From: Methanothrix sp.
GTDB lineage: Archaea > Halobacteriota > Methanosarcinia > Methanotrichales > Methanotrichaceae
Length of the DNA stretch: 64,000 bases
Direction: 5' to 3'
Assembly (NCBI GenBank): GCA_037128175.1
Contig: JBAXWY010000006.1
Coordinates: 28,858-92,857 of the forward strand
In this document: piece after piece, positions 2,576 to 6,942 of the stretch
How positions within the stretch are numbered: position 1 is the first letter of the stretch
Layout: every line of letters begins with the position of its first letter
Program-made: the position numbers and the translations under genes
The notes under the pieces: generated by a model
The model's database searches: none
What the model saw: only the letters and a program-made list of their open reading frames with translations
Told to the model about the DNA's origin: nothing

Positions 2576-5148
2576 AAAGACTGCCACAGCTGCTCGCCCC
2601 CGCCGGTTCACCGATGGCTCTGCATGCAGCCATCGCCGCTGGTGCCGATGCCGTTTACCTGAGCGGCAAGAGATTTGGGGCACGAAAATTTGCCGCAAAC
2701 TTTGATGAGCCCGACTTAGCTAGGGCTATAGACTACGCCCACCTCCGGAACGTAAAAGTCTATGTGACAGTCAACACCCTCATCAGAGAAAATGAGCTCT
2801 ACGATGTGGCTGTGTATCTTATCCGCCTTTTTGAGATGGGGGTAGATGCCGTGCTGCTACAGGATCTGGGGCTAGGCCTGCTGGCAGGCCGCATGGTGCC
2901 AGAGCTGGAGAGGCACGCCTCCACCCAGATGACCATTCATAACAAAGAAGGTGCTCTCTGGGCGAACCGCGCCGGATTTAAGAGAGCCGTCCTGGCCAGA
3001 GAGGTCGGGCTGGATCAGATAAAAACGATGGGGCAAGAGTTGGAGAATGAGAAGGATACAGCCACGCAGGCAATCGGCCTGGAGGTTTTCGTGCACGGCG
3101 CTCTATGCTACTCTTACTCCGGGCAGTGCCTTCTCTCCTCGGCCATCGGCGGGCGCAGCGGCAACCGGGGCATGTGCGCCCAGCCCTGTAGAAAGCCCTA
3201 CGTGCTGCTCAGAGGAGAAAAAGACATTTACGGCAGGCCGACCGGCCTGGCAGCCCAGCCGCAAAGAGAGCGTTTTCTCATATCCACCCGCGACCTTTGC
3301 GTTTACCGGCATCTGGACAGGATCGTCCGCTCGCCGATAGAGTCCCTGAAGATTGAAGGGAGGATGAAGTCCCCGGAGTACGTGGCCATTGTAACCAGCA
3401 TTTACAAAAGAGCCCTGCAGGCCATTGCCAAAGGCAAGTGGTCGCCGTCTTCTGAGGATGAAAGAGACCTGGCCTTGTCCTTCAACCGCGACTTCACGAA
3501 TGGCCACCTGCTGGGGGCCAGGGATGTCATGGGCCGGGAGATGTCGGACAACCGGGGCGTTCTCATCGGCAGCGTGGCCTCTTTCGATGTGCAGAGAGGC
3601 GAGGCGGCAGTAAGGCTCTCCGGCCCCTTTTGCCCTGAGAAGGGCGACGGTCTGGTCTTTCTGGCTCCTGGCCAAGAGATGGGCCTGGTGGTGCAAAATG
3701 TGGTGAAAAAGGATGGCCTGCTGCGGCTGATGACGCCGGAGAGGGTGCGCCCAGGCAGCAAAGTCTATCTGACGGGCAGCACCGCTCTGGCCAAAAAAGC
3801 GCAGGAGATCATCGCCTCCGACAAGATAGAGATCCCCCTGGATTTAACCATCATCTGGCAGGAGGGCACGCCTCTGCTGCAGGCCACGCTGGAAGACGGC
3901 CGCATCGTTCAGGTCAAAGCCGCCTTTAAAATGGAAAAGGCCAAAAATCAGCCCACTTCCCGGCAGCAGATCGTTTCGCAGATGCTGCGAACGGGTGGAA
4001 CGCCTTTTGTCGTCCAAAAGATTGCCATGGACTACGCCGGGGATCTTTTCGCTCCCTTAGGTGCCTTAAACCAGGCTCGGCGTGATCTCTTGGAAAAGGT
4101 GCAAGAGGCCCTTTTAGAAAAGAGACGCCCCACCAAGGAGAAGGTAGAGAGAGCGCGAGATATATTGAAAGAACTGAACCTGTCTGCCTCTACGTTTCCA
4201 GCCTCTACTGGTCCCACCTCCAATGCCCCGACCACATCGATGGCCCGCATACCTTCACTGGCCGTCTATGCCGATAGCCTGGAGACTGTGAGGGGCGCCG
4301 TGGAAGGAGGATGCCAGCGAGTTTACTTTGAGCCCGTCCTGGGATGGGAAGAGAAAGACCGGGCAACAAAGGCCGCGAAGATGATAGAAGAGGCAAAAAC
4401 AATCTGCGGAAAAGTGCCGCTGATCTGGAAGTGGCCCAAAATCACGCACGCAAATTTCTTCAACTTTGCCGGGCCTATGTTGCTGGCCAAGGCAAATGTC
4501 GATGGGGTCATGGTGGAGAACGTAGGAGCAGTGCAGGCCGTTATGCAAGCTGCCCCCGATGTCCATATTTATGGAGCCTCCGGCCTCAACGTCTGCAATC
4601 ACCTGACTGTGCAGGCGTTAGCTTCGCCCTTAGAGCAACTCACCCTCTCGCCGGAGCTGTCCGCCCGGCAACTGGCCGATACCGTAGCCGCTGTGCGCCT
4701 TATCCCGGACGCGCCCCAGATGGAGCTGATGGTGCAGGGTAGCCAGGAGGTAATGGTAGCCGAGGACTGCATGCCCCTTCCGGCCAACGGAGAATATGAT
4801 GCAAAAGAATTCTGGGGGCTGCAGGACATGAGACGCATCTTTCCCCTGCGCCTGGATGATGATAAGAGGACGCATATCTTTAACTCCGCCGAGACCTGCC
4901 TGCTCGACCAGATGCCCGAGATCTTCGCCATCGATCTAGATGGTGTGGCCGTGGACGCACGGGGCCGGACGGGAGAGTACGCCCGCGAGATGACAAAGAT
5001 TTACAAAAAGGCCATAGATCTTACCGAGAGGGGAGGCGGGACTCTCCGCCAGGATCTGGAAAGCCTGAAGGAGTCTATACGGCCCCTGGCTCTGGGGGGC
5101 ATAACCCACGGCCACTTCCAGAAGGGGCTGAAGGATGAGATCACTTAG
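2572..5148 (+). CDS. U32 peptidase family protein with DUF3656 (RlhA-like RNA hydroxylation protein)
   Basis: LLAPAG, GADAVY, HASTQ, EVFVHGALCYSYSGQC, NRGMCAQPCR and SLKIEGRMK motifs. Confidence 0.85.
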   Translation: MKRLPQLLAPAGSPMALHAAIAAGADAVYLSGKRFGARKFAANFDEPDLARAIDYAHLRNVKVYVTVNTLIRENELYDVAVYLIRLFEMGVDAVLLQDLGLGLLAGRMVPELERHASTQMTIHNKEGALWANRAGFKRAVLAREVGLDQIKTMGQELENEKDTATQAIGLEVFVHGALCYSYSGQCLLSSAIGGRSGNRGMCAQPCRKPYVLLRGEKDIYGRPTGLAAQPQRERFLISTRDLCVYRHLDRIVRSPIESLKIEGRMKSPEYVAIVTSIYKRALQAIAKGKWSPSSEDERDLALSFNRDFTNGHLLGARDVMGREMSDNRGVLIGSVASFDVQRGEAAVRLSGPFCPEKGDGLVFLAPGQEMGLVVQNVVKKDGLLRLMTPERVRPGSKVYLTGSTALAKKAQEIIASDKIEIPLDLTIIWQEGTPLLQATLEDGRIVQVKAAFKMEKAKNQPTSRQQIVSQMLRTGGTPFVVQKIAMDYAGDLFAPLGALNQARRDLLEKVQEALLEKRRPTKEKVERARDILKELNLSASTFPASTGPTSNAPTTSMARIPSLAVYADSLETVRGAVEGGCQRVYFEPVLGWEEKDRATKAAKMIEEAKTICGKVPLIWKWPKITHANFFNFAGPMLLAKANVDGVMVENVGAVQAVMQAAPDVHIYGASGLNVCNHLTVQALASPLEQLTLSPELSARQLADTVAAVRLIPDAPQMELMVQGSQEVMVAEDCMPLPANGEYDAKEFWGLQDMRRIFPLRLDDDKRTHIFNSAETCLLDQMPEIFAIDLDGVAVDARGRTGEYAREMTKIYKKAIDLTERGGGTLRQDLESLKESIRPLALGGITHGHFQKGLKDEIT

Positions 5149-5154
5149 GGCAGA

Positions 5155-5457
5155 TCAGAGGACATAATCCACCACTATCCGGCTCTCACATACTTTGCCG
5201 ACAAAGTTTGCCACCAAAATGTGTTCAGGCTGCTTCTGATAGCTGTAAAGGGCTTCTTTGCTCTCGAATTCTGAAACGAGGACCAGATCATAGGCCACGC
5301 CCGCCTCCAGAAAGTTGATGCCCACCTCGAAGAACTTAATCTCCTCGATTTGGGCAGGTAGGGCTTCCAGCTTAGCCTTCAGCACCTTGATATTTGCCGC
5401 CTTATCCCTGCCCTCGGCCCATTCTTTGAGCTTGAACATAACGATATGCTTGATCAT
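5155..5457 (-). CDS. Dabb family stress-responsive A/B barrel protein
   Basis: MIKHIVMFKLK...YDLVLVSEFES.EAL..YQ..PEH...RIVVDY. Confidence 0.85.
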   Translation of the reverse strand: MIKHIVMFKLKEWAEGRDKAANIKVLKAKLEALPAQIEEIKFFEVGINFLEAGVAYDLVLVSEFESKEALYSYQKQPEHILVANFVGKVCESRIVVDYVL

Positions 5458-5523
5458 CCGCAAAAGCCTCCCTGCTACCAGGAACAATTCCTCTATTGCG
5501 GTCACATGCTTAGTTTATAACGA

Positions 5524-6421
5524 TAATGGTTTTCCCGGTGAGCAAAGGGCATGCGACTTGTACGCTGCCTGCTTGGCAAAAAGGGCAGCACTGGAGCGAA
5601 GAGGAAGAATAAGGAGGGAGGCAAAAGTCGTCTGGATGTAGGAGGGAGAAAATAGCCATCGACTTTCGCCAATACACTATACGTCAGTTGACGATATTTA
5701 AGGATTTCCGTCAAGAAAGGTCAAGAGCCAGGAATCCTTACCAAAGAAGATAACAGAAAAGAGCGAAATCAAGATATCAGGCAGGCCAGCGCCGAAAGCC
5801 ACAGCGTCCCTTTTGAAGGAGCCAGTCACCGCAGTGATGGCCTGACCCTGCCCGAAGCCCGACTAAAAGCCGGAAGGCGGCAGAGCACTGGAATTTGACA
5901 CAGCGTCCGTTTTAAAGGAACCCGTTCTCATGGGGCCTCGTGCTCGCCTTACGCCAATGGTTTGCGTCGCGCTCCTGTTTCCCGGTCGTGTATTAGCGTG
6001 AGAGATCCCGGCGGATTGCTAGGCCGTTTATGGCATGCAACTTTCAGCCACCGGATCATTTTACTCACAGGCTCCATAGCCCGAATGCATTGCCACGAAG
6101 GCATGCATCTCCTGAAACAGAGCATTATCGGAATTGCGGTTAAGCCCACGACACGCCCGCCAACCCTTGCAGTACGCGACGAACTATCTATATGATCGTT
6201 ATAGATATTTGTAGTTTGCGGCTGAGCCTGGGAAGGGATGAAAAGGAGACGAAGGCACATCCAAACAAGCACTTGCCGTGCGAAAAGACCAGACGGACCA
6301 GGTGCTTGAGGTACGTCGCGAACCTCCATTATCTCGCCCTGATATTACCTGCGACGACCAATAATGGGTTCAATCTACTACCTATTCACCTCGAACTACA
6401 AAACAGGAGAGCAAACCATTA
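5524..6421 (+). ncRNA. Candidate large structured non-coding RNA (family not recognised)
   Basis: No credible CDS. About 15 complementary segments found by eye, G-U pairs favour the + strand, linkers are A/G-rich, and the ends are complementary (TAATGGTTT/AAACCATTA). See findings. Confidence 0.5.
5800..5919 (+). repeat. 21-nt imperfect direct repeat x2
   Basis: CACAGCGTCCCTTTTGAAGGA (5800-5820) and CACAGCGTCCGTTTTAAAGGA (5899-5919), 19/21 identical. Confidence 0.85.
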
Positions 6422-6502
6422 ATTAGCCATGAAGTCATAGTAATAGAGCGTGGCATGGATTAAAGAAATGAAATGAAATATGTGAATTTAAGGGTAAGTG
6501 AT

Positions 6503-6784
6503 ATGAAGAACTCGATAATATTAGGCTTAATATTCGTGTTGTTGGCAGGCAGCTCTTTTGCCGTACCTTTGCAGCTAAGCGGGGACTCTGGCCGGGCCAT
6601 TCTCGGCACAATTGATCTAAACAACAGCACCAACATGGCCAACACCACCAATGAGACACAGCTGTGGAGCTGGGGAAAGCTGCCCATCGGCCATTTTATT
6701 AATGCTTCCGGAAAGCTGGCGGCCAACCCCCTCAATGACGATAGTTTAGTGATCGTGCCGCCACGTTCTGATGCAATGAATTAA
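6503..6784 (+). CDS. Small secreted hypothetical protein
   Basis: MKNSIILGLIFVLLAGSSFA signal peptide; LSGDSGRAIL and LWSWGKLP.G motifs. Confidence 0.65.
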   Translation: MKNSIILGLIFVLLAGSSFAVPLQLSGDSGRAILGTIDLNNSTNMANTTNETQLWSWGKLPIGHFINASGKLAANPLNDDSLVIVPPRSDAMN

Positions 6785-6795
6785 AAAAAGTGTAG

Positions 6796-6869
6796 CGGAC
6801 CCGCCGGGATTCGAACCCGGGTCCGAGGCTCCGGAGGCCTCTATTCTATCCAGACTATACTACGAGTCC
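6796..6869 (-). tRNA. tRNA-Arg(CCG)
   Basis: Cloverleaf: acceptor GGACTCG/CGGGTCC, anticodon arm GAGGC-CT-CCG-GA-GCCTC, T-arm CCGGG-TTCGAAT-CCCGG. No intron, CCA not encoded. Confidence 0.95.
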
Positions 6870-6889
6870 ATTATGAGTAAAATTTTAGA

Positions 6890-6897
6890 ATATATAA
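6890..6897 (-). promoter_or_regulatory. Putative TATA box of tRNA-Arg
   Basis: TTATATAT on minus strand about 21-28 nt upstream of the tRNA 5' end. Confidence 0.5.
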
Positions 6898-6942
6898 GTT
6901 AGCGGGCCCTTCAACCCACGGAAGCAGCCCCTAACTAATGAT

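Follow-up and report, generated by a model that had tools for sequence, protein, structure and literature searches.

Evidence for a multi-copy, minus-strand non-coding RNA locus in Methanothrix and related archaea

The gene-free gap and its repeated element

The window analysed here is a stretch of 64,000 nucleotides from Methanothrix sp. (GenBank assembly GCA_037128175.1, contig JBAXWY010000006.1, positions 28,858 to 92,857), in which a minus-strand Dabb-domain gene (5155-5505; Pfam Dabb, 91.7 bits) and a plus-strand open reading frame (ORF) of 103 aa (6473-6784) that matches no Pfam family flank a gap without any long ORF (5506-6472), with a tRNA-Arg(CCG) gene following on the minus strand at 6795-6869. 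Within this gap lies the subject of the present study, an element at 5600-6228 that is probably one copy of a lineage-specific, multi-copy, minus-strand non-coding RNA locus of Methanothrix and its relatives, a reading that takes in the two transcription units proposed below, for a large structured RNA and a small RNA module termed M1, together with their mechanism. An initial annotation of this DNA had recognized about 1 kb without a credible protein-coding sequence and had placed there a plus-strand structured RNA of about 900 nt (5524-6421), of no recognized family and functionally tied to the tRNA. Its core idea holds, since an undescribed large structured non-coding RNA without an Rfam match is present, and the absence of a credible coding sequence likewise stands; the strand, the length and the tie to the tRNA do not.

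The element belongs to a dispersed family whose members are 630-720 nt long. DNA searches of the genome from which the window derives (hereafter the home genome) detect a full copy on contig C28, a copy cut by the contig end on C55, a 5′-truncated copy on C8 and several shorter pieces, and a profile built from 23 copies gives 13 nhmmer matches there, four of them long copies. The RNA locus is therefore one of several dispersed paralogous copies per genome and not a single-copy gene. The genomes of relatives each contain several copies of 630-720 nt with 70-76% identity to the window copy, and across these relatives the element ends sharply at ∼5600-5608 and ∼6221-6228. Copies are found throughout the genus and widely in the family: at E <= 1e-10 the element is detected in all 58 genomes of the genus, in 75 of 105 genomes of the family and in 9 of its 16 genera. 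A covariance model of a 133-position sub-domain (R1), which matches the window at 5984-6116 on the minus strand, finds matches in 43 of 74 family genomes, and with it the element was not found in the 76 genomes searched in four other families of the class, a number that constitutes a sample and not a proof. One search of relatives was made with a query that also held the tRNA and two protein genes, and what it matched beyond the genus (best E 1e-4 to 1e-9) is not assignable to the element.

The copy beside the Dabb gene has orthologues in several species (86-97% identity), and copies from different loci share pairwise identities of 0.54-0.93, with a median of 0.72. An orthologous copy retained in several species, together with divergence of up to 46% between loci, indicates a paralogous family of long standing rather than a transposon with recent activity.

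The family is non-coding for protein. The copies do not share a reading frame, their conservation has no period-3 component (in the single ungapped block the period-3 power is 0.35 of the mean), and gap runs mostly have lengths that are not divisible by three (1186, 456 and 244 runs with remainders of 1, 2 and 0, respectively). A decayed family of protein-coding genes, or an insertion-sequence remnant, would fit the longest stop-free stretch per copy, which at a median of 121 aa is somewhat above that of shuffled sequences (median 93, 95th percentile 147), but given the lack of a conserved frame, the distribution of gap lengths and the fact that no transposase-like ORF lies inside any copy, such an origin is exceedingly improbable.

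A conserved multi-helix fold

Forty-three full-length copies were assembled, three were removed at identities of at least 93%, and L021 was replaced by the window copy to yield alignment A1 (40 rows); a divergent copy (L049:349-1028) included in A1 was left out of alignments A2 and A3 (39 rows). In the minus orientation, RNAalifold predicts from the 39 non-redundant copies of A2 a consensus structure of 95 pairs, 20 of which show compensatory changes, and in a separate count of pairs 98.1% of 3688 cells are canonical. Changes on both sides of a pair occur in 20 pairs and 86 cells, compared with 10.9 ± 1.9 pairs and 25.6 cells in shuffled alignments, and none of 500 shuffles reaches the observed values. 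When partners are slid by one to three columns, 37-47% of cells remain paired and at most 12 pairs and 17 cells are double-changed. The conserved fold occupies a core of ∼390 nt and is closed by a terminal stem that joins both ends.

The strand on which this fold is formed can be judged from two asymmetries, that of folding energy and that of G-U over A-C cells, both of which point to the minus strand. The same alignment folds at -82.03 kcal/mol with 95 pairs in the minus orientation and at -27.82 kcal/mol with 59 pairs as its exact reverse complement. The consensus pairs contain 525 minus-strand G-U cells against 30 A-C cells, the reverse of what had been supposed when the non-Watson-Crick pairs were taken to be G-U on the plus strand, and even among the 103 pairs that were predicted on both strands from the first alignment, G-U cells number 196 on the minus and 95 on the plus strand. 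Otherwise invariant helices contain pairs that run through G-C, G-U and A-U (e.g., G-U 18, A-U 14 and G-C 7; G-U 21, G-C 16 and A-U 2), and on the plus strand such pairs would be broken by an A-C mismatch in about half of the copies.

A plus-strand RNA of ∼900 nt extending from 5524 to 6421 and functionally connected with the tRNA, as initially annotated, could draw on the conservation of some plus-strand helices, since the two strand predictions have the 103 pairs in common, on the nearly palindromic TATA-like boxes described below, which could in principle fire in both directions, and on one RNA library contig (from run X7) that spans 5834-6366. Conservation of the shared helices is, however, expected on either strand, because Watson-Crick pairs are symmetric, and the plus-strand consensus fold is far weaker, with many of the pairs becoming A-C mismatches. 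Furthermore, conservation ends at ∼5600 and ∼6228, so that the right third of the proposed RNA (6227-6421) is not conserved and has no paralogues, and the RNA core itself is only ∼390 nt long (∼6166 to 5780). The tRNA appears to be a coincidental neighbour, as ARAGORN detects tRNAs in the fetched flanks of only 2 of 42 other loci. A plus-strand origin is consequently very unlikely, and the RNA family is in all likelihood read from the minus strand.

Several of the helices drawn in the initial annotation survive in the comparison of 39 copies and others do not. The helix at 5620-30/5660-70 is kept (94% canonical), as are the long hairpin at 5998-6068 and the hairpin at 6085-6108, which correspond to helices 8-11 of the consensus fold. 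The pairing of 5782-88 with 5838-44 is 85% canonical, with one pair formed in 15 of 39 copies, and is weaker than a competing terminal stem (5780-86/6155-61, 98.5%), and that of 5699-5706 with 5733-40 is not conserved (53%). The arms at 6185-92 and 6200-07 are conserved as a DNA palindrome (90%) but are located upstream of the predicted RNA start. A local helix at 5564-69/5584-89, a multibranch domain at 6208-6402 and a pairing of the proposed ends (5524-32/6413-21) all fall outside the repeated element and have no paralogous copies.

In the window the core of the large RNA comprises ∼387 nt (∼6166 to 5780, minus strand), as delimited by the consensus fold, the match to model R1 and metatranscriptome contigs over 5780-6140; its 5′ end is predicted at ∼6162-6166 and its mature 3′ end at ∼5780, just past the terminal stem. 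This stem, P1, consists of seven pairs (6155-6161 with 5780-5786) that are 98.5% canonical in the 39 copies, with alternation between G-C and G-U at two of them. Inside it the consensus fold places helix 3 (6147-6152 with 5985-5990), the helix 8 hairpin (6085-6108; nine pairs, 98.6% canonical, with variation on one side only), a long three-part hairpin formed by helices 9-11 (5997-6069), which is the best-covarying part of the molecule with 9 of its 19 pairs changed on both sides, and helix 12 (5979-5983 with 5917-5921), all on the minus strand. The hairpin of helix 15 (5820-5842, minus strand), in which three pairs show compensatory changes, carries a UNCG-type loop: 13 of 39 copies have C-UUCG-G, C-UGCG-G or C-UACG-G, and nine have a UUCGCG variant. 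UNCG-type loops with a C-G closing pair are especially stable, and their presence on the minus strand counts among the evidence for that strand. An internal duplication spans 5800-5925 on the minus strand, its modules at 5800-5826 and 5899-5925 forming a direct repeat (D1, 85% identity) that includes helices 13, 16 and 17, and each module consists of a small hairpin followed by a GCUGUG hairpin. Most other copies contain an additional variable hairpin of ∼75-90 nt between window positions 6117 and 6118, and its lack in the window copy explains why the core measures ∼387 nt here and ∼470-490 nt elsewhere. An 11-nt complementarity between 5667-5677 and 5988-5998 was considered and rejected, as helix 3 already engages one of its arms and the other falls upstream of where M1 is predicted to start.

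Putative transcription units, RNA libraries and neighbouring genes

As a reference for promoters, the 80 nt upstream of 38 home-genome tRNA genes identified with ARAGORN were compared; many of them contain a box in which two bases separate a purine-rich GAAA(G) from TTAAAT or TTTATCT and which ends 26-31 nt ahead of the mature tRNA. The putative promoter region of the large RNA is an AT-rich, partly palindromic segment (6182-6218, minus strand) containing a TATA-like octamer (6189-6196), which reads ATTATATA or a one-base variant of it in the copies, the former in most, and is situated 27-33 nt before P1 in the 39 copies (27 nt in the window copy); its form and position suggest a promoter role. 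The palindromic AT-rich block, with arms at 6182-6192 and 6200-6210, overlaps this octamer and might serve as an operator for a dimeric DNA-binding protein. P1 is followed by a terminator-like pyrimidine/T-rich tract (5741-5779, minus strand) that is poorly conserved in sequence but has a longest T run of at least four in 27 of 39 copies and at least three in all, with a T+C content of 53-71%. Transcription in archaea ends at T-rich tracts, and the composition of this segment is consistent with a terminator role.

Downstream of this tract, a box resembling a B recognition element (BRE) and TATA box (5696-5711, minus strand) has the same form as the boxes of home-genome tRNA genes and precedes the small RNA module M1 (5605-5670, minus strand), with a fixed 25-nt spacer between box and hairpin in 35 of 39 copies. 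M1 is built around a 10-bp hairpin (5661-5670 with 5620-5629; helix 18 of the consensus fold), which is 99.7% canonical and in which pair 755-802 is G-U in 18 copies, A-U in 14 and G-C in 7. One CCUCC motif is located in the hairpin loop and a second in the 3′ tail, and both are present in most of the 39 copies and in all six M1 copies of the home genome. A U5 tract downstream of M1 (5578-5582, minus strand) may act as its terminator, to judge from the sequence. The stretch of ∼70 nt between the Dabb promoter region and M1 (5530-5600), in which this tract is contained, is absent at the orthologous locus of relative G010 (L019). Four of the six home-genome M1 copies occur without the large RNA, and copies other than those at long elements are found at C1:136270-136372, C4:92219-92365, C42:14704-14822 and C67:3763-3873. 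These solo copies, and the occurrence of M1 alone at the Dabb locus of some relatives, indicate that the large RNA and M1 genes are separable, and M1 together with its box (5605-5711) is probably a separate multi-copy small-RNA gene.

It is proposed that the element contains two tandem minus-strand genes. The large RNA would be made from its own promoter and would extend from ∼6166 to 5780, or perhaps to ∼5745 before trimming, ending at the T-rich tract after the stem, and a small RNA of ∼70-90 nt would extend from ∼5671 to ∼5580 as the product of the downstream, separable gene with its BRE/TATA box, 10-bp hairpin and two CCUCC motifs.

A search of sequencing runs for window 5100-6900 returned 24 rows from 15 studies holding parts of it, 23 of them on record as RNA. 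Four RNA runs from four studies (X1, X5, X6 and X7) were compared as assembled contigs, which carry no strand, no transcript ends and a single depth each and for which DNA carry-over is formally possible. Contigs of all four runs fall on 5780-6140. A depth of 879 is recorded in X6 for an 82-nt contig that matches 5859-5940 exactly, and further contigs on 5897-6104 have depths of 18-446, compared with 4.1 for contigs on the Dabb gene (5320-5457, 12 differences) and 2.76 for those on M1 (5611-5683). X5 yields 843 contigs of at least 90% identity between 5780 and 6115, with a depth of up to 25,000 for a single contig; summed depths, which reach ∼1e6 in this run, do not measure expression level, since they combine many strains and paralogues. 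Two X5 contigs end at 5780 and 5783 without further letters, at the end of the terminal stem. A 279-nt contig from X1 matches 5919-6120 with two differences and then enters the extra hairpin of other copies. In two of the four runs, RNA libraries hold the core at depths that are orders of magnitude above those of neighbouring-gene contigs. No conclusion attaches to zones lacking contig cover, such as 5710-5770 and the flanks in X5 and X6: contigs of other copies fail to align to the highly variable linker, and they break at ∼6120-6140 because the window copy is without the extra hairpin.

In 11 of 48 copies with the promoter-side module, a gene encoding a DUF1699 protein (PF08004; 188 bits against a cut-off of 33.4) is located upstream on the same strand, as at L002:2248-2682 on home contig C28, and in nine of these 11 it ends 54-82 nt from the element edge. 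The window copy has no DUF1699 gene, and three of the eight DUF1699 genes in the home genome adjoin a copy. A structure model (predicted local distance difference test, pLDDT, 75.7) consists of a small alpha/beta domain and three C-terminal helices. VIA-align matches it best to generic alpha/beta domains (Z 6.5) and its C-terminal helices weakly to helix-turn-helix (HTH) domains (Z 4.6-4.8); Foldseek returns nothing at E <= 0.001, phmmer against the PDB returns only matches to ribosomal protein S6 at E 0.11, and the ESM Atlas returns the family itself and one related cluster in which 27% of members contain HTH_7. A DNA-binding HTH tail is only a lead. The protein was also considered as a serine recombinase, which no listed match supports.

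This neighbour bears on a reading of the element as a long untranslated region (UTR), either the 3′ UTR or co-transcribed tail of the upstream DUF1699 gene or the 5′ leader of a downstream gene, which here would be the Dabb gene. The upstream position of DUF1699 at 54-82 nt in nine of the 11 linked copies is as expected for such a tail, and M1 of the window points at the Dabb gene from ∼95 nt away. However, 37 of the 48 copies have no DUF1699 gene within 700 nt, convergent genes adjoin the M1 side of several copies, and likewise that of the home-genome solo M1 copies, and promoter-like boxes with fixed spacing precede both RNAs, all of which makes a UTR a very improbable explanation for the family.

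The sequences surrounding the window copy are specific to the locus. Apart from one 46-nt repeat, the spacer between the element and the 103-aa ORF (6227-6472, to which no strand is assigned), which holds the multibranch domain of the initial annotation, has counterparts only at the orthologous locus in close relatives (88% in G012; up to 6311 in G011), and no paralogous copies of it were found. The repeat, at 6399-6443, recurs at home contig C38:26331-26376 with 91% identity and is unrelated to the element. The 103-aa ORF has a hydrophobic, signal-like N-terminus and is conserved along with the tRNA in several relatives. On the other side, the TTTATAA at 5514-5520, noted by the initial annotation ahead of its plus-strand RNA, lies ∼90 nt outside the conserved element, and in relatives (L018, L019) it is likewise conserved next to Dabb; its position would better suit a TATA box for the minus-strand Dabb gene than a plus-strand promoter. 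In the closest relative, G012, the sequence to the right of the element is ∼21 kb away and inverted (contig C5 41291-41910 and 62587-63258), the breakpoint coinciding with the element edge (window ∼6219-6226); a 306-aa ORF of unknown type is located 379 nt downstream at the rearranged site, and the other junction of the rearrangement (L010) yielded no second copy of the element.

The dispersal of the copies and the existence of truncated and solo-module forms would also be expected of a DNA-level repeat, such as a mobile element resembling a miniature inverted-repeat transposable element (MITE), a recombination site or a regulatory cassette, that is transcribed only incidentally. The conserved palindrome at 6182-6210, the rearrangement breakpoint in G012 and the adjoining DUF1699 gene with its possible HTH tail in 11 of 48 copies could be accommodated in the same way. 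Nevertheless, terminal inverted repeats were not found, as none joins the ends of 5600-6228 and the aligned ends of 40 copies are unrelated; copies of 54-93% identity occur in conserved synteny across species and are old and stable; the strand-asymmetric G-U pattern and the compensatory changes indicate selection on RNA; and contig depth in RNA libraries is very high. A DNA-level repeat is hence an unlikely account of the family. At the Dabb locus of the relatives in which only M1 is present (L018, L019), no clean empty site or target-site duplication was identified.

A number of observations weigh against the minus-strand RNA locus. The shuffle control overstates the support for the fold, since one and the same alignment supplied both the structure and the pair counts and its copies are related to each other, and helix 1, a predicted long-range pairing of 6164-6166 with 5615-5617, is probably spurious. 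Minimum free energies (MFE) compared with dinucleotide shuffles on both strands show no folding excess: the 967-nt gap (5506-6472) gives z-scores of -0.48 on the plus and -1.62 on the minus strand (20 shuffles each) and the 393-nt core (5776-6168) of -1.05 on the minus and +0.17 on the plus strand (100 shuffles each), so that the many complementary segments in the single sequence, which drew attention to it initially, are no more than expected by chance. The promoter and terminator assignments are made from motifs alone. In X7, which is rRNA-depleted, the core has a depth of ∼6-20 against ∼6-9 for the flanks and 17-24 for M1, a 613-nt contig runs from 5834 to 6366 across the predicted start, and in any of the runs the contigs, which carry neither strand nor ends, may sum paralogues and many strains. 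Searches for antisense targets of the large RNA and M1 in the home genome produced only short matches at chance level (E 0.7 or worse). Despite generous controls, the margin by which the fold is supported in the alignment remains large, with covariation among homologues in 20 pairs, and it is highly likely that the family is one of genuine structured RNAs.

Proposed function and relation to known RNAs

A tentative proposal is that the large RNA is a stable, abundant molecule serving as scaffold or decoy, in which the duplicated hairpin modules would bind a protein, or that it self-assembles; as a mode of action this is, on balance, doubtful. Such a scaffold, decoy or self-assembling RNA best fits the closed fold, the several conserved copies, the duplicated hairpins, the very high representation in RNA libraries and the lack of a detectable antisense target. 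For the small RNA, the obvious hypothesis is that it masks ribosome-binding sites through its CCUCC motifs.

Large structured RNAs of unknown function are, to our knowledge, rare, and nearly all described classes are bacterial. The family-wide conservation, several paralogous genes per genome, covariation-supported fold and high RNA library depth of the present family point to an archaeal class. Methanothrix-type archaea are among the most widespread methane producers and are important for global methane and in anaerobic digesters. If its abundance is as the libraries suggest, this RNA would represent a major unannotated part of the Methanothrix transcriptome, one which pipelines that rely on ORFs only or on Rfam only would discard. 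It would then be a target for structure determination, identification of partners and strand-specific expression work, and could provide a specific marker for Methanothrix activity in metatranscriptomes, while the linked small RNA with two anti-Shine-Dalgarno motifs would allow translational control to be tested in a methanogen for which no genetic system exists.

Searches of Rfam 15 (4227 families) identify only tRNA in the window at gathering score, and in the interval 5300-6900 at E <= 10 they give three matches, all on the tRNA; a full-length paralogue (L031, 2250-3150) has one chance-level match at E <= 10 (ALIL, E 1.3, scoring 12.6 bits where the gathering score is 50). OLE, GOLLD, ROOL, HEARO, raiA and group II intron domains have models in this collection, in which no family removes the novelty initially suspected. 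A full-text literature search, which excluded supplements and subscription journals, found no paper on the Methanothrix RNA or on DUF1699 in archaea, and passages of PMC10477309 and PMC11225162 concern pipelines only.

The RNA resembles archaeal RNase P and signal recognition particle (SRP) RNAs in size (∼300-400 nt), in the terminal stem joining its 5′ and 3′ ends and in its high abundance. However, neither model matches the window region, in keeping with the lack of RNase P or SRP signatures reported for it initially, and the canonical genes are on other contigs of the home genome, with a single match over cut-off for each (RF00373 on contig C37, 220.9 bits; RF01857 on contig C82, 187.7 bits). 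6S RNA and CsrB are abundant, stable, protein-sequestering RNAs with repeated hairpin modules, to which the internal duplication of 5800-5826 and 5899-5925 is comparable. The analogy is one of mechanism only, without homology. M1 is, by description, similar to sRNA41 of Methanosarcina mazei, which reportedly contains C-rich motifs complementary to the Shine-Dalgarno sequence and is proposed to mask ribosome-binding sites: the CCUCC motifs of M1 are likewise C-rich and complementary to Shine-Dalgarno, but M1 occurs in multiple copies, often in physical linkage with the large RNA.

The closest parallels in kind are found among large bacterial RNAs. GOLLD and ROOL, for which RNA-only multimeric assemblies are reported (10.1101/2024.12.08.627333), are also large, ornate RNAs without an assigned function, and RNA-only assembly is one possible mode for the RNA described here. 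The Methanothrix RNA differs from them in being smaller (∼390-490 nt), in having no Rfam match, in not being linked to tRNAs (2 of 42 loci) and in being found, among the families searched, in one archaeal family only. OLE RNA of Bacillota, which is reported to be exceptionally highly expressed and of unknown biochemical function (PMC3413148), shares with it a length of hundreds of nucleotides, a multi-helix structure, restriction to a lineage and very high expression. In contrast to OLE, which is a single-copy RNA within an operon, the Methanothrix RNA is archaeal, multi-copy and dispersed, and it neither matches Rfam nor has an evident membrane-protein partner gene beside it. Within the literature searched, supplements and subscription journals excepted, it appears to constitute a new RNA class, akin in kind to OLE, GOLLD and ROOL but without their defining sequence or structure. 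Slightly short of an even chance is given to the fuller picture, in which several gene copies of this class, expressed far above ordinary transcripts, would form RNA-protein or RNA-only assemblies and would be genetically coupled to an anti-Shine-Dalgarno small RNA and, in some copies, to a DNA-binding DUF1699 protein, an archaeal system without a described counterpart among these bacterial RNAs or elsewhere.

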